From assembly GCA_041489255.1 (NCBI GenBank), contig JBGPQV010000005.1:78460-142459 (forward strand): a stretch of 64,000 nt of DNA, given 5' to 3'. The stretch is from Thermoplasmata archaeon (GTDB taxonomy: Archaea; Thermoplasmatota; Thermoplasmata; RBG-16-68-12; JAFNFQ01). Below are positions 1,576 to 60,898 of this stretch, one piece after another. Both the position numbers and the translations under genes were made by a program. Under the pieces are notes generated by a model. That model had not been told where the DNA came from and did not search any database. It saw only the letters and a program-made list of their open reading frames with translations. Numbering within the stretch: the stretch's first letter is position 1; the number at the start of each line of letters is the position of its first letter.

Positions 1576-2254
1576 GATCCTGGTCCTGTGCGGGACTCGC
1601 CACAAGCATCCTTGATTGATCACGGGTTGGGTGCGCCTCTCTCGACCTGAGCCAATAGGCCTAGGTTCTCCTCGGCCTCCTCCAGGGAGAGGAGCTGGAC
1701 GATTAGCCCGGCGTAGGTCAGGTCGTAGTCCCCCTTCGAAACGCTCTGCTTCAAGGGCAGAAAGCAAGGGAGTGAAAACCGAATCCATCTTACTCAATAT
1801 AAACGCCCAGTCGCTGGAGGACTGGCTATATGTAGATGTCATGCCAATCTCTCCATGTGTGGCAATAGATATTTTCGCGTGGAAATCGGGAGAATACGAG
1901 TATAGTTTTCTGTACAATCTTGGAGGCATGCCCTGTGATGCGTGCGTTCCGGTCTGAGTGTTCATTGTGTATAGTCGTGAACGGCAGAAGAGAAGATTCG
2001 CAAGACGGCTTGTCACCGAGCACCTATCCACATGGAGTCCGCATCGCCTGTCCGCGCCATACTCGCCCGATGATCATCGGCGGTGAAGGCCAAGAGAACA
2101 TCTCCGGCGCGCCGCGAGCGGTCGAACCCGCCGAGTCTCTACAATGAATGATGTATATTCTCAGGCTTCCGATATAAATGCTAACTATTTAGTATAATGG
2201 ACTTGTCGCAAACTTGCTTTCCAAGAGGTCGGATAGGGTAAGGAGGCTAATAAC

Positions 2255-2536
2255 TTGGCGCTCACGGAAATCGACCTGGTTTTGAACGTCGTCGCGGTCC
2301 TGGGCACGATCGGCTTCGGTGCCTACGCGGTGCAACAGAAAGACCTCATGCGCGCGGTCTTCTCCTTCGCGGTGTCGAGCGCGTTCCTCGCGATGCTTTT
2401 CTTCCTCCTTGCTTCACCGTTCGCCGGAGTGCTCGAGCTCACAGTGGGCGCAGGCCTTATCCTAGTGCTGTTCCTGGTAGCGCTGACTCTCTCCATGGGG
2501 GTCGAGGGCGAGAGCCCGGAGGGTGGTGAGTCATGA
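2255..2536 (+). CDS. Membrane subunit of hydrogenase/antiporter complex (MbhD/DUF4040/NuoJ N-terminal-like)
   Basis: Three TM helices, KDLMRAV...ELTVGAGL motif, AGGAGG RBS upstream, first gene of the operon. Confidence 0.8.
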   Translation: MALTEIDLVLNVVAVLGTIGFGAYAVQQKDLMRAVFSFAVSSAFLAMLFFLLASPFAGVLELTVGAGLILVLFLVALTLSMGVEGESPEGGES

Positions 2537-2775
2537 GCAGCAGCAAGACCGCAGCCGCCGTGATTCTTTCAGTCCTGGTCGTGATCCTCATGCTCTCACT
2601 CCTGCTCAAGGCGGCATTCCACGAGCCCGCCAATGCCCCGGACGGCGCCAGCCCTGGCAGCGTGCTTTGGGAATCGCGCGATTTCGAGACGATTCTCCAA
2701 GGTCTCTTGATCCTTGGCGGGGTGGTCGCAATCCTGATGCTGCTCAGGTCATCGAAAGCGGAGGCGCAGAGATGA
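2533..2775 (+). CDS. Small membrane subunit (MbhE/NuoJ C-terminal-like)
   Basis: Two TM helices around LWESRDFETILQ; overlaps both neighbours. Confidence 0.7.
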   Translation: MSSSKTAAAVILSVLVVILMLSLLLKAAFHEPANAPDGASPGSVLWESRDFETILQGLLILGGVVAILMLLRSSKAEAQR

Positions 2776-38659: not shown

Positions 38660-39625
38660 TCACAGGTAGAGGTCTCTCCTGATGCGCGGCAGGAAGGCGG
38701 TGAAGATGGCAATCTTCGTGATCTCCTCGCGGTCGAGCCGCCCGTGGCTGAGGTATCCTATGGCGCCCTGCTTCGACCCCATGCCCTTGATGCCGGTGAT
38801 ACGCTCCATGGCCTGACCCACTGTCATCCCCTTCTCGACGAGCGAGACGACCGCAGGGGGGTAAGCGAAGCCTGGGCCGTGGCCGACCGTCAGCCGCCCC
38901 GCCTTGTCCACTACCGCGCAGTACTGCACATCCAGGTGATCTCTGATTGATTCGTTCCAGAACAGGCCCGCCTCGATCCCGACGCCGAAATCACCGCCAC
39001 CGAGCGCTCTCCTCGCCCTGTTGATCGCGCCGAGCACGACGTCCTGTTCGAGCGGCTCCGGTGGCACCCCGCTCTCGACCGACACGCCGCGCACCTTGAC
39101 CTTGGAATACAATTTCGAGGCGACCGTCCTGACAGCGCTCACCTTCAGTCGGTTGTTCGTGCCGACGTTGATGACAAGAGTCCTCAACATTCGCCCTGTC
39201 CGACCGACTTCCTTCGCCCTGATCCGCGTCGAAGAGATCGGGATGCAATCCTCTGCAAGGACCATCGGGACCGGGAGGAGGTCCAATGGCGGGAACCCTC
39301 GCATCGCGCGCTCCTCGTTGACCCGCACCGCCACCGCCCTTTTCTCGGCGGAGACGACGAGTGCATCGAGCTCCTCGCTGACTGCAGGCCCGAGTTCATC
39401 GTCGATTCGCACGATCTCGAATCCTTTCGCGCCCTTGCGGCGGAGATAGGATTCCAGGTTGCGTTTCCTCAACGCATACGGCGAGACTCTCTTTCTAGTG
39501 CGCCTTGCCATCTCGTCGCTCGTGAGCCCGACCAGCAGCTTCCCGCCAGTGTCGATTGCTTTCTTCAGCAGTGCTTCATGGCCGGCGTGGAGGATGTCGA
39601 ACGTCCCGCCGACCGCCACCCTCAC
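38660..39625 (-). CDS. coaD: Phosphopantetheine adenylyltransferase fused to inosine/xanthosine triphosphatase (YjjX)
   Basis: GGTFDILHAGH...ISSTRIR followed by GTNNRLKV...GAINRA...GIEAG...GAIGYLS. GTG start at 39625. Confidence 0.9.
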   Translation of the reverse strand: MRVAVGGTFDILHAGHEALLKKAIDTGGKLLVGLTSDEMARRTRKRVSPYALRKRNLESYLRRKGAKGFEIVRIDDELGPAVSEELDALVVSAEKRAVAVRVNEERAMRGFPPLDLLPVPMVLAEDCIPISSTRIRAKEVGRTGRMLRTLVINVGTNNRLKVSAVRTVASKLYSKVKVRGVSVESGVPPEPLEQDVVLGAINRARRALGGGDFGVGIEAGLFWNESIRDHLDVQYCAVVDKAGRLTVGHGPGFAYPPAVVSLVEKGMTVGQAMERITGIKGMGSKQGAIGYLSHGRLDREEITKIAIFTAFLPRIRRDLYL

Positions 39626-39627
39626 GC

Positions 39628-39828
39628 TTAGGCCCCCCAGAGCCAGATGACAATCACGACCGCGAAGGCTATGAAGCTGCCGAAGTAGAGCATGAGCAGC
39701 TGGCGCTTCTTCTTGCGGATGAGGTTCTCCCGTTTCGCTTTGCACTCGTCGGAGCAGTATTTCTCGGTGCCGACCATGGCCTTCTCGCACTCTGCACAAT
39801 GGCGGTGCTGGGGAATCCGCTCGACCAC
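39628..39828 (-). CDS. DUF2116 family Zn-ribbon membrane protein
   Basis: IPQHRHCAECEKA...YCSDEC plus C-terminal TM. TTTATA about 20 bp upstream of the GTG. Confidence 0.85.
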   Translation of the reverse strand: MVERIPQHRHCAECEKAMVGTEKYCSDECKAKRENLIRKKKRQLLMLYFGSFIAFAVVIVIWLWGA

Positions 39829-39904
39829 GATGTCGCATGGGAGCGGGATATAAAGAGGTTGGCGGCGGGACCGTTCGAGGCGGGGCGGCAACGATCGGAC
39901 CGAC

Positions 39905-40372
39905 TTGTGGATACTTATCCACAACCGCCCGCTGCCGCCTCAGGGAGCGGAGGCATTCATCTTCATCACTGCTAACCTCCTATCCACCTCCTTCTTGATC
40001 GAAGAGTAGTGGGCGGTCAACGACTCCAACGCCCGTCTCCTCGTTCTATCGGCACCTGCGGGCCCCAGGTACCGCCATCTCCTCCTGCTGTATCCGTTCT
40101 CTCGCGTGTACGACCAGAGGTAGACATACCGCCTTCCGTTGACCCTCCGGACCTCGAGGCCGCATCCGATCTCCATGTGGATACTTATCCACAAACCCGG
40201 CTTGAACGGCATTGCGGGGGAGGGGCGAAAGTGACCTCGCCCGCTCGGGGGGAAGTGAGCTGACTTGTGGAACTTATCCACAAGTCCCGAAAGCGGCCTC
40301 TCCCCGGCCGTGGCGGCTTGCGACCGGAGCGGCGTTTGCAGGATTTGTCGAGTTGTGGATACTTGTCCACAA
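39905..40372. repeat. Four copies of the palindrome TTGTGGATA-CT-TATCCACAA
   Basis: 39905-39924 perfect; 40175-40194 ATGTGGATACTTATCCACAA; 40265-40283 TTGTGGA-ACTTATCCACAA (arms extend over 40262-40286); 40353-40372 TTGTGGATACTTGTCCACAA. Confidence 0.95.
39940..40176 (-). CDS. 78-aa basic putative DNA-binding protein (SSV1 integrase N-terminal/D-335-like)
   Basis: LEVRRVNGRRYVYLWSY...RRRWRYLGP followed by an amphipathic helix. The ATG lies inside palindrome copy 2. Confidence 0.75.
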   Translation of the reverse strand: MEIGCGLEVRRVNGRRYVYLWSYTRENGYSRRRWRYLGPAGADRTRRRALESLTAHYSSIKKEVDRRLAVMKMNASAP

Positions 40373-40495
40373 GAGGGTAATCGATTTGACCCTTGCGGGC
40401 AAGGTTTTTACATTTTTCGCCACGAGCATTTAAAGGACGCCGAAGCGCCTTTATACTACATCGGCATTGAACGCGGGAGTCTGCCGGTGGGGGTC

Positions 40496-40759
40496 ATGAA
40501 GAAGCTAGGTGTCGTGGACAACCTCTCCTACGACGGCTCGATACTCGTGCGGGCCGAGTTCGCCCCGGGCAGGGGCGCGCAGGTTCTTGACGCAAAGAAG
40601 AACCCGGTCGGCAAGATTTTCAAGGTGTTCGGCCCGGTCAGGAGGCCTTTCGCTGCGGTGAGACCGAGCAGGAAGGTGTCGCTGAGCCTCATCGGTTCCG
40701 AGGTCTATCTCGAAGAGGGAGAACATGCCGAAAAACCCAAGAAAGGTCGAAGAAGCTGA
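40496..40759 (+). CDS. gar1: H/ACA RNP protein Gar1
   Basis: MKKLGVV...[15 protein letters not shown]; conserved position directly upstream of tfb. Confidence 0.88.
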
Positions 40760-41666
40760 TGAAGTCACAAGGTGCCCCGAGTGCAACAGCACGCACCTGA
40801 GGTTCGACTACGAAAGAGGCGAGCTGGTCTGCGACGAGTGCGGTCTCGTCATTTCCGACCAGATGATCGACCAGGGCCCGGAGTGGCGGGCGTTCGACAT
40901 GGAGCAGGGTGAGAAGAGGGCGCGCACCGGCGCGCCGATGACCTACACGATTCACGACAAGGGCCTTTCCACGACGATAGGCTGGAAGAACAAGGACTCC
41001 TACGGCAAGAGCATCCCGACGAGGAGCCGCGCGCAGCTGTACCGCCTGAGGAAGTGGCAGCGCAGGATCAGGGTGAGCAACGCGGCTGAGAGGAACCTTG
41101 CGTTCGCCCTCAGCGAGCTCGACCGCATGGCGAGCGGCATGGGCCTGCCGAGGAATGTGCGGGAGGCGGCCGCCATGATCTACCGCAAGGCGGTGAACAA
41201 GAACCTCATCCGGGGAAGGTCGATCGAGGGTGTCGTCGCCGCCAGCCTCTATGCGGCTTGCAGGCAGTGCAACGTCCCGAGGACCCTCGACGAGATTGCG
41301 GGAAGCAGCCGCGTCGGGAGGAAGGAGATAGGCAGGACCTACAGGTTCATGACGCGCGAGCTGAAGCTGAAGCTCATGCCGACCCGCCCCCAGGACTACG
41401 TCTCACGGTTCTGTTCCGAGCTCAAGCTGAGCGGTGAGGTGCATTCGAAGGCCATCGAGATCCTCAAGGATGCGGCAGACAAGGAGCTCACCTCGGGCAG
41501 GGGACCGACCGGCGTGGCGGCAGCCGCCATATACGTCGCGTCGATCATGGCGAACGAGCGCAGGACGCAGCGCGAGGTCGCTGATGTGGCGGGAGTGACC
41601 GAGGTCACCATCAGGAACAGGTACAAGGAGCTCACCGAAAAGCTCGGCATAAAGATCGAACTCTAG
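40725..41666 (+). CDS. tfb: Transcription initiation factor IIB
   Basis: CPEC...CDECG Zn ribbon, [10 protein letters not shown], two cyclin repeats, [13 protein letters not shown]. Confidence 0.99.
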
Positions 41667-59665: not shown

Positions 59666-60898
59666 TCAATCCAGCGTCGTCTGGAGCCTGATCCTATAGC
59701 CCTTAAGCCCCGCCAGGAATTCGTCCCTCTCGAGGATTCTCAGCACATCCATTGCCGGGACGCTCGCTTCGATTTCCTTGGTCCTCCCGCCGCGCCCGAA
59801 CGACTTCACCCGCGCATGGACCAAGCCGAGCATGTCGAGCTCGGAGATCAGGTCGGTGACGCGCCTCCCCGTGAGCCTGGGCAGGCCCGCCCTCCCGCAA
59901 AGGTCGCAGTAGGTCGTGTAGACCTCGCCCGTCGTCAGCTTGGGGTTGCCAGCTTCCTCGTTGAGCAGCAGCCCCAGGAGTATGACCTTGCTCTGCGTCG
60001 GGAGGGATTTCACCGCCTCCACGACCGTGTCCAGGTCGATCTTGTTCCTGGCCGTCTGGACATGCTGCTCGGTGATCGTGCTGGAGCCAGACCTATCGGC
60101 GAGCTCCGCCGCGACCCTGAGCAGGTCGAGCGCCCTCCTGGCGTCTCCGTGCTCCTGCGCGGCCAGCGCGGCGATCAGGGATATGACGGAGTCGCTGGCG
60201 ACCCCGTTGTCGAACGCTAGCTTGGTTCTCTGCTCCAAGATGTCCTTGAGTTCGTCCGCGTTATACGGCGGGAAAACCATCTTCTCGTCGCTCAGCCTGC
60301 TCCGCACTCGCGGGTCGAGGGACTCCGTGAACTTCAGGTCGTTGCTGATCCCGATGATGCTGACCTTCGCGTTCTTTGTGTCGTCGTTTATCTTCAGGAT
60401 CTGGTAGAGGAAGTCGTCGCCGCTCTTGTAGACTATCTTGTCTATCTCGTCGAGGGCGATTATGACGACGCGCTTCTTCTCGTCCAGCTTCTCCACGAGC
60501 ATGCTGTAGACGCGGTCCGTCGAGAGGCCCGTGAACGGGATGCGCTGGTCGAGATTCTCGATGAACCTGTTGCCGACGCTCTGCAGGACGCCGTACGCCG
60601 TGTCCACCAACTCGCAGTTCATGTACAGGAAATCCGCGGCGCCGGCCGCGTCCGCCTTCTTGAACTCCTGCTCGATGTACTTGACCACGGCGGTCTTGCC
60701 GGTCCCGGTCTTTCCGAAGATGAGGACGTTTGAAGGCTGCTGGTGCCTCAGGGCGGGGACCAGCACCTGCGCTAGCTGGTCTATCTGATGCTGCCGGTGT
60801 GGCAACTTGCCCGGGATGTACGACGGCCTGAGGATCTCCCGGTCCATCCTGAACGTCGGATGGGTACGAAGATATGGCTGGAAGACGCTTTCTTCCAT
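59666..60898 (-). CDS. cdc6: Orc1/Cdc6 replication initiation protein
   Basis: LPHR, GKTGTGKT, LDEID, FPPYNA, GDARRALDLLR, ELDMLG, GRGGRT. Confidence 0.98.
   Translation of the reverse strand: MEESVFQPYLRTHPTFRMDREILRPSYIPGKLPHRQHQIDQLAQVLVPALRHQQPSNVLIFGKTGTGKTAVVKYIEQEFKKADAAGAADFLYMNCELVDTAYGVLQSVGNRFIENLDQRIPFTGLSTDRVYSMLVEKLDEKKRVVIIALDEIDKIVYKSGDDFLYQILKINDDTKNAKVSIIGISNDLKFTESLDPRVRSRLSDEKMVFPPYNADELKDILEQRTKLAFDNGVASDSVISLIAALAAQEHGDARRALDLLRVAAELADRSGSSTITEQHVQTARNKIDLDTVVEAVKSLPTQSKVILLGLLLNEEAGNPKLTTGEVYTTYCDLCGRAGLPRLTGRRVTDLISELDMLGLVHARVKSFGRGGRTKEIEASVPAMDVLRILERDEFLAGLKGYRIRLQTTLD

Follow-up and report, generated by a model that had tools for sequence, protein, structure and literature searches.

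A small basic archaeal protein encoded between copies of a private palindrome: a candidate self-recognising gene cassette in a Thermoplasmata genome

In a 64,000-nucleotide stretch of a Thermoplasmata archaeon genome (GenBank assembly GCA_041489255.1, contig JBGPQV010000005.1, positions 78,460 to 142,459 of the forward strand; this whole stretch is referred to as the window), a short reading frame on the minus strand at 39940..40176 shares part of its start codon with a palindrome, and further copies of the palindrome lie on both sides of the frame. This locus raises the question of whether so small a frame is a gene at all and, if it is, what its product might have to do with the palindromes that surround it. 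The analysis reported here indicated that the frame is a genuine gene, which stands alone and is under selection, that it belongs to an unnamed family whose members are bracketed by private palindromes, and that gene and palindromes behave as an evolutionary unit. With regard to function, we give about an even chance to the explanation that a dimeric protein binds its own flanking palindromes and represses itself, in a cassette that is duplicated and lost as a unit; this proposal was drawn from sequence comparison, and the explanations that compete with it are weighed below.

The frame, read from 40176 to 39940 with the TGA stop codon (39942-39940, minus strand) included, translates to a 78-residue protein, named P0001. 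Read on the minus strand, the sequence across the gene start is ...gggTTTGTGGATAAGTATCCACATGGAG..., or in a fuller reading ...TTTGTGGATAAGTATCCACATGGAG.... The 20-mer TTGTGGATAAGTATCCACAA was found on the same strand at 39905-39924 (0 mismatches), 40175-40194 (1 mismatch) and 40353-40372 (1 mismatch), and the number of 20-mer matches in 100 dinucleotide-preserving shuffles was 0. A fourth copy with a one-base deletion, TTGTGGATAAGT-TCCACAA, is located at 40265-40283, so that besides the start-codon palindrome there are three more copies within 470 bases. Named in the direction in which the gene is read, all on the minus strand, these are copy A (TTGTGGACAAGTATCCACAA, 40353..40372), which forms the distal end of an upstream 90-base array, the degenerate copy B (40265..40283; repeat family D3, inverted pairs I9/I15), copy C (TTGTGGATAAGTATCCACAT, 40175..40194), whose final two bases are the AT of the ATG, and copy D (39905..39924), the perfect 20-mer, which begins 16 bases past the stop codon at an offset of +253 from the ATG and has the orientation of copy C. 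The start-to-start spacings of the palindromes are 270, ~90 and ~88 bases, i.e., multiples of ~90. A leader motif, CACTTTCGCCCCTCCCCC, conserved across family members, lies between copies B and C at 40216..40233 (minus strand). The single mismatch of copy C is its last base, an A to T change that makes the gene's ATG and leaves the palindrome ending in CACAT. A preliminary description of the locus, made from the letters alone, had noticed that the one deviating base is exactly the one that creates the ATG, and in this it was correct; its account of a site at the start codon holds as well, while the bracketing of the gene on both sides had escaped it. The start-codon-overlapping arrangement was also found in a second copy of the gene on contig C8 of the same genome (G000; the window lies on contig C5) and in both copies present in a congeneric genome (G001).

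P0001 contains 15 Arg and 3 Lys residues against 7 Asp/Glu, giving a net charge of +11 in 78 residues. The ratio of non-synonymous to synonymous substitution rates (dN/dS, Nei-Gojobori method) was 0.15-0.24 in all six pairs of the four type-1 copies of G000 and G001, pairs that are not independent of one another, and the purifying selection which the preliminary description had named as a check on the gene was thus detected among the copies. In addition, two paralogues in another genome (G070) with 95% identity over 327 bases are separated by 9 synonymous changes and one codon indel, with 0 non-synonymous changes.

Family matches were present at E <= 0.01 in 54 of the 79 genomes of the order, with 0-11 matches per genome; one family of genomes accounted for matches in 43 of its 44 genomes (2-11 each) and another had them in 0 of 14. 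A HMMER search of 1.84 billion representative proteins returned 64 clusters, and true family matches were 54-190 residues long, started with M.[IV]GCG and typically comprised ~80 residues. Three long repeat-containing HMMER matches were set aside, and the two of them that were read proved to be unrelated tandem repeats. Fused or longer forms of the protein were likewise rejected as candidates: the long open frames that surround matches arise where GC-rich DNA stays open ahead of the true start, and three seemingly longer database proteins have miscalled starts. P0001 hit 0 families in Pfam, NCBIfam and PHROGs even at E <= 10, a Pfam scan of 35 members revealed no family in common, and a profile search of PDB sequences gave no meaningful match. 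A lead to DUF6788 (PF20586), scored 0.84 in the ESM Atlas, was dropped after PF20586 produced 0 matches in the window's genome and hhalign against three full members returned a probability of 0.4%; the ESM Atlas label of the nearest clusters was Thermoplasmatota. Searches with tblastn against 50,697 phage and virus records yielded nothing at E <= 0.1, and no family relative was found in plasmid records (tblastn) or in IMG/VR contigs (profile scan). In a limited literature search neither the protein family nor a frame with a palindrome before the start and after the stop was found described; passages of one paper (PMC4153887) used the word 'palindromic' for CRISPR only. The family is unnamed, and a private palindrome placed before the start and again after the stop appears to be a new architecture whose parts resemble known systems. 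As a side observation, family genes of the subfamily represented at loci L020, L021, L028 and L030 end in TAG, and in some genomes the frame runs on beyond it. In-frame TAG codons in relatives had at first suggested a methanogen of the Methanomassiliicoccales, an assignment that was dropped when the MCR_alpha domain was not found in the window's 96%-complete genome.

The arrangement seen in the window recurs throughout the family. A motif-based gene finder applied to the fetched loci delivered 58 distinct members, with ~7 loci giving no member by the pattern and members with <60 bases upstream or <100 bases downstream left out of the count. A palindrome with an arm score >= 6 was located within the 50 bases before the ATG in 55 of the 58 members, and the remaining three carry a weaker form of the same upstream motif; as a control, random 56-base windows of the same loci reached a score >= 6 in 60 of 324 cases and >= 7 in 25 of 324. 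In 39/58 members a second copy of the palindrome was detected near the stop codon, from 25 bases ahead of it to 100 bases past it. An earlier subset had given the upstream palindrome in 23/23 and the downstream copy in 17/23 members. The cassette consists of a leader motif, an 18-26 base palindrome before or over the ATG, the gene, and a palindrome of the same orientation at or after the stop codon. Nine palindrome classes correspond one-to-one with protein subfamilies, the two largest in 28/28 and 14/14 cases, and examples of the classes are GTGGAYAAGTATCCAC, TACCTCTACTTAGAGGTA, TACCTCTRAACAGAGGTA, ..CCTTAAGTAAGG.., GTTATACCTACTTAGGTATAAC, GTTATCCTTAGGTAAGGATAAC and GTTACCACCGTTTGGTGGTAAC. 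Between classes, both arms and both palindrome copies are altered in concert, and the asymmetric centre (AG or CT) is oriented alike in all copies of one cassette. The leader motif, of a form like (C)TTTCAC..CCTCCCCC, stands 45-65 bases before the ATG across subfamilies even where the proteins are ~40% identical; it forms the left edge of the unit common to two recent paralogues and is also found ahead of a cassette of an unrelated family of small proteins, family B, described at the end of this text. Every one of the palindromes can fold into a stem of 7-10 pairs with a loop of 4-6 bases, and in the largest subfamilies the right arm contains GAGGT, placed five bases before the ATG, with its complement as the left arm.

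Comparison of loci within and between genomes showed that the cassette behaves as an evolutionary unit, which is duplicated, exchanged, internally deleted and reduced to solitary palindromes. The module at 39863..40372 (minus strand) is duplicated on contig C8 of its own genome (88.5% identical over 514 bases by blastn against the whole genome), where the same gene is preceded by four palindromes spaced at exactly 90 bases and followed by a fifth, and contig C28 carries a solitary type-1 palindrome. The congeneric genome has the same three loci, and on its contig C48 the copy-A unit is joined straight to the ATG by a 180-base deletion between repeats. Similarity of paralogues within a genome is limited to about 280-330 bases, from the leader to the downstream palindrome; in the most recent pair, that of G070, the 327-base unit extends from the leader motif to ~5 bases past the downstream palindrome. 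The orthologous intergenic site upstream of rpl11 is occupied by a family cassette in G001; in G000 it carries another gene, of 103 residues, which has flanking repeats of its own and a leader that is similar. A third family copy in the window's own genome, on contig C1, is 45% identical and has its own palindrome; the same palindrome type is found at a truncated pseudogene 2.7 kb from this copy and, on contig C14, in a gene-less remnant made up of leader, palindrome and trailer. In G070, one palindrome type occurs at 28 distinct sites, of which 12 form six gene-flanking pairs and 16 lie elsewhere. Inspection of all 16 showed that two bracket or adjoin decayed gene remnants and that the rest are solitary and intergenic, several of them, judged by eye, 30-50 bases past a stop codon. 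The similarity of solitary sites to cassette leaders and trailers extends over 70-150 bases of flanking sequence. Among the 83 largest open frames of 24 family loci there were one Phage_integrase domain and one weak DDE match, and the other matches were to housekeeping functions. The word 'domesticated', which the preliminary description had applied to the protein, suits poorly a gene whose multi-copy cassette, bounded by palindromes, undergoes duplication, exchange, decay and loss as a whole. A target-site duplication as the source of the two palindromes was considered and rejected, since the shared unit starts ~45 bases outside the upstream palindrome. Separately, dS between the two G001 copies (contigs C43 and C48) is 0.037, against 0.117-0.161 between these and the G000 copies (C5 and C8) and 0.207 between the G000 copies, which suggests gene conversion between paralogous modules in one lineage. 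One further locus of G070 (contig C32, L126) is an internally deleted cassette with two palindromes 89 bases apart and a remnant of the 5' end of the gene, ~50 bases past what appears by eye to be the 3' end of a tRNA gene.

An AlphaFold2 (AF2) model of P0001, with a predicted local distance difference test (pLDDT) score of 91.8, has strands at residues 5-12, 15-26 and 29-39 followed by a 34-residue helix at 43-76, and this predicted beta3-alpha topology is that of arm-type and AP2 domains. The preliminary description had called the protein an integrase-arm-like DNA-binding domain. The predicted topology of three strands and a helix agrees with this; the arm-type identity is not established: in VIA-align comparisons PH domains came top (Z 6.6), ahead of the AP2 domain 6sy0_A (Z 5.6, root-mean-square deviation 5.9, 66 residues) and the arm domain of the high-pathogenicity island (HPI) integrase, 3jtz_A (Z 4.6, root-mean-square deviation 2.6, 54 residues, 18% identity), all of them under the caution level of Z 8, and Pfam Arm-DNA-bind_5 touches 1 of 35 family members with E 0.063. 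Foldseek with the model against PDB and BFVD returned nothing at E <= 0.001, and the structural search for beta-sheet DNA-binding domains in PDB that had been proposed earlier ended without a match at that threshold. A homodimer prediction for P0001 gave a score of 0.17 (mark 0.42), which weighs neither way.

The likeness to the N-terminus of D-335, the integrase of SSV1, to which the preliminary description had drawn attention, proved real at the level of the motif. Using hhalign, the family profile matched seven fusellovirus integrase N-termini, chosen independently of the small-protein family, with a probability of 83.2% (E 8.8e-6, 33 columns), and D-335 alone with 10.7%. The N-terminal motif of the SSV-type integrases is [IV]RE.KG+YYVY...G....YVGP and that of the small family V+RV.G++YVY.W.Y..G....+YLGP, and in both it is basic and stands at the extreme N-terminus. 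Unlike the integrases, the small family has no catalytic domain, no att site in the gene and no tRNA target, and the long C-terminal helix is the small protein's own, being absent from the integrase alignment. Furthermore, the integrases are viral, whereas the small family is cellular and was not found in the virus and plasmid collections. The role of the N-terminal region of the SSV integrase is still only partly defined: according to the part of PMC8371274 that was consulted, it controls multimerisation (dimers/tetramers), the middle part of the integrase makes specific DNA contacts, and both halves of IntSSV1 bind the target.

A profile search of a sample of 300 other genomes of the phylum gave 6 weak matches. 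Five of these are the first ~60 residues of longer frames, four of which were scanned and contain a Pfam Fic domain, the fifth being cut by a contig end; the sixth is an 86-residue stand-alone frame. Comparison of the family with the Fic N-termini by hhalign yielded 96.3% (E 1.8e-9), a value inflated by the fact that the set was picked with the same profile, and the Fic set against the integrase set yielded 23%. Judged by these alignments, the sheet region is remotely alike the N-termini of fusellovirus integrases and archaeal Fic proteins, which places one sheet module in three contexts, one free-standing and two at the N-terminal end of these larger proteins. In four of the five Fic genes a split palindrome, GTTATCCCC..N30-39..GGGGATAAC, with an AT-rich, TATA-like middle, is located 61-82 bases before the ATG; in one Fic gene the whole split-palindrome element is repeated across the stop codon, and the half-site GTTAYCC recurs in four of the stand-alone palindrome classes. 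Because split palindromes of such a score are common in the AT-rich Fic loci (23 in 14.4 kb), the weight of the Fic palindromes lies in their shared position and half-site. The ~60-residue N-terminal module is unannotated at the Fic loci (L064-L068, in other genomes of the phylum).

Several features suggest that the protein recognises the palindrome specifically: its net charge is +11 and the site is strictly symmetric, there is one site class per subfamily with arms and copies changing in concert, and the pairing of module and palindrome recurs in the Fic genes. A palindrome at the gene's own start, a feature of autoregulated repressors, is present in 55 of 58 members, and in the window it overlaps the ATG. 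From these sequence features we infer DNA binding, dimer symmetry and self-repression by the family protein. P0001 would bind its own palindromes as a symmetric dimer or a higher multimer, the palindrome at the start codon would serve as the operator through which the protein represses its own gene, and the paired flanking sites plus the additional 90-base units of the window could allow cooperative binding or looping. The architecture permits a testable pairing of each protein with its presumed DNA site in nine or more specificity classes. If binding is true, the family offers a natural set of compact protein-site pairs, as well as a way to study how cassettes come and go in archaeal chromosomes where no transposase is obvious. 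Should it fail, the palindromes would be candidates for a transcript-end or recombination signal of a new archaeal kind.

Several observations weigh against self-recognition and self-repression. Binding of the protein to the palindrome is deduced from the co-occurrence of the two, and the match between classes and subfamilies could reflect common descent of whole cassettes, not co-adaptation. Between G000 and G001 the palindromes differ at 4 of 100 positions and the spacers at 9 of 322, i.e., at about 3-5% divergence the palindromes are no better kept. The palindrome end varies from +1 to -19 relative to the A of the ATG, which is loose for a single operator geometry, and the downstream palindrome copy is not detectable in 19 of 58 members. 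With respect to the protein, the matches to DNA-binding sheet domains are sub-threshold and are outscored by PH domains, and by analogy with the multimerisation function reported for the SSV integrase in PMC8371274, the shared module may be an oligomerisation device rather than a DNA reader. The right arm GAGGT resembles a ribosome-binding site in some subfamilies, where a role as an RNA hairpin fits equally well. Finally, the dynamics of the cassette fit a recombination role of the sites just as well, and such a role is kept as the main rival.

According to this rival, to which we assign a minor share of the probability, the palindromes are recombination or mobilisation sites and the protein is an Int(N)-like accessory for multimerisation or specificity in a minimal mobile cassette. 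A crossover between directly oriented sites would excise the gene and leave one solitary site, and the centre does have the same orientation in all copies of a cassette, the gene-less single-palindrome remnants retain leader and trailer, and the 180 bases deleted in G001 lay between repeats. However, deletions between 20-base direct repeats need no dedicated enzyme, and no recombinase is consistently adjacent to the cassettes (one Phage_integrase and one weak DDE among the 83 frames of 24 loci). The window's 96%-complete genome gave 0 matches to the Y1 transposase domain (PF01797), and its four tyrosine recombinases (PF00589) lie on contigs other than those of the three family copies. The presence of two different cassettes at one intergenic site in sister genomes, the restriction of similarity in the 95%-identical paralogue pair to the 327-base unit, and the division of the 28 sites of one type in G070 into 12 paired and 16 elsewhere are all in keeping with mobility, as is the likeness of the protein to an integrase region that mediates multimerisation according to the part of the source seen; the left edge of the shared unit, lying ~45 bases outside the upstream palindrome, is not, nor is the fact that the family was not found in IMG/VR contigs or in phage or plasmid records. 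It is likewise an unlikely though conceivable account that the cassettes are minimal selfish units of a type without a published description so far, made of an Int(N)-like protein of ~80 residues and two private, directly oriented palindromes, which move, swap and excise, with family B as a second user of the frame. A host recombinase such as XerA would then be recruited to the marked sites, or the activity would be the protein's own, and the N-terminal module of SSV integrases and Fic proteins could be derived from free site markers or could have given rise to them.

An explanation at the level of RNA is quite improbable in our estimate. Here the palindromes would form hairpins at both ends of the transcript, the 5' one covering the ribosome-binding site or start and the 3' one stabilising or terminating the RNA there, and the protein would bind the hairpins or be unrelated to them. 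The ability of every palindrome to pair (7-10 pair stem, 4-6 base loop) accords with this, yet the symmetry reaches into the centre (TA-AG-TA), where a hairpin loop has no need of it, and in the imperfect copies listed C.A appears to be as frequent as G.U on the sense strand. The placement of GAGGT five bases before the ATG in the largest subfamilies, with a complementary left arm, would suit the masking of a ribosome-binding site, whereas the palindrome of the window is without a ribosome-binding motif. In a group of orthologous loci, a canonical TATAAAG box ~110 bases upstream would give the transcript a long leader with the palindrome in it, and the solitary copies of G070 are often 30-50 bases past a stop codon (by eye); four to five copies at 90-base spacing upstream of a gene are hard to square with messenger RNA ends, and Rfam gave no relevant family match.

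We see little likelihood that P0001 is an ordinary host transcription factor with a small regulon, for which the solitary palindromes are target promoters and the cassette-like appearance results from birth and death of paralogues. One solitary type-1 site lies, by eye, between a peroxiredoxin-like and a small GTPase gene and is kept at the orthologous place in G001, and copy D is situated ~50 bases upstream of the promoter of the DUF2116 gene, both as expected of target sites. Nevertheless, solitary sites look like cassette remnants, with 70-150 bases of leader or trailer similarity, decayed and internally deleted genes occur between palindromes, and genomes of one order hold anything from 0 to 11 copies.

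The remaining two explanations are contradicted and have next to no probability left. A provirus scar, in which the frame would be the intN half left by an integrated SSV-type element, is suggested by the resemblance of the sheet motif to the part of D-335 upstream of its integration site. It is at odds with 0 tRNA genes found by ARAGORN in the 64 kb, with no integrase match (PF00589) on contig C5, with the lack of a tblastn match at E <= 0.1 in the 50,697 phage and virus records, and with the gene's own stop codon, long C-terminal helix, purifying selection and dozens of intact stand-alone relatives (58 members); the preliminary description, which had argued from a lack of nearby tRNA or catalytic integrase that this is not a split intN fragment, was right on both counts. 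A replication origin with origin-recognition boxes is brought to mind by four repeats in a 570-base intergenic region and an orc1/cdc6 gene in the same window, but this gene is ~20 kb off, the same repeats occur on contigs C8 and C28, and members in other genomes have a different palindrome around the same small gene. The orc1/cdc6 gene itself (window ~59741-60019, minus strand) was recognised by Pfam Cdc6_C with E 3e-26, and a replication origin may lie next to it.

Comparison with known systems shows where the parts of the cassette are familiar and where they diverge. The arm domains of lambda, Tn916 and HPI integrases and the AP2/ERF domains have in common with the small protein the beta3-alpha topology predicted by its model; they differ in that integrase arm domains bind direct arm repeats within a recombinase, while here a free protein would bind a palindrome, and in that the structural scores of the small protein are under Z 8 and Pfam gives no match. 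In the bacterial REP/REPIN-RAYT systems (repetitive extragenic palindromes and their associated transposases), as here, a gene is flanked by its cognate palindromic repeat, paralogues have specific repeats and solitary copies are scattered. In contrast to RAYT, the protein is smaller by half, lacks an HUH/Y1 transposase domain and is predicted to be beta3-alpha, not ferredoxin-like; the archaeal palindromes number tens of copies, not hundreds, and flank the gene as direct copies. Autoregulated small repressors (antitoxin-like proteins, C proteins and archaeal plasmid regulators) similarly combine a small basic protein with a palindrome over its own start, and the domain relatives of the small family are fused to Fic enzymes with related promoter palindromes. 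However, the predicted fold is not ribbon-helix-helix, helix-turn-helix or AbrB, a second palindrome is present past the stop codon, and the cassettes turn over. Xer-site (pdif) modules and integron cassettes likewise have palindromic sites at the ends of short gene units, and gain, loss and exchange affect the whole unit; in the present family the sites are 18-26 bases long, directly oriented and specific to their cargo, the units are solitary rather than arrayed, and no Xer or IntI gene is adjacent.

With regard to the genetic context in the window, the palindrome cluster takes up the 570 bases that separate a minus-strand DUF2116 gene from the plus-strand genes gar1-tfb. The DUF2116 zinc-ribbon gene (39631..39831, minus strand; Pfam PF09889, E 4.9e-13) is the downstream neighbour and lies outside the cassette, and copy D is located ~50 bases upstream of its TTTATAT box. 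The divergent neighbour gar1 is contained in an open frame at 40265..40759 on the plus strand (Pfam Gar1, E 6.6e-7), with its real start near 40500, and is followed by tfb at 40725-41666 on the plus strand (Pfam TFIIB, E 1e-51). The strand opposite to the gene is open through the 3' part of the cassette, in the window at 39556-39975 (plus strand) and at locus L003 at 1899-2684 (minus strand), and on contig C8 the opposite-strand opening lengthens a convergent membrane-protein frame by ~35 codons into the module; such an opposite-strand open frame may be a chance effect of GC-rich DNA.

Family B, mentioned above for its leader, comprises unrelated small proteins of ~90-103 residues with the motif [IV]VSYDV...GQSVL, which are encoded in the same leader-palindrome-gene-palindrome frame. 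One locus is at G000:C2:123387-123864 (L051:673-981, plus strand). Matches were found in 57/79 genomes of the order, with up to 9 each, and flanking palindrome pairs are clear in three of the ten loci examined. The proteins belong to no Pfam family, and the AF2 model (pLDDT 88.6) is ferredoxin-like with no significant PDB match. On contig C9 of G000 (L137:1156-3182, minus strand), a 222-residue protein combines a minimal nucleotidyltransferase (Pfam NTP_transf_2), as its N-terminal half, with a family-B-like domain as its C-terminal half, and its gene stands between a 111-residue gene and a Fic gene in a layout like that of a toxin-antitoxin or defence islet.

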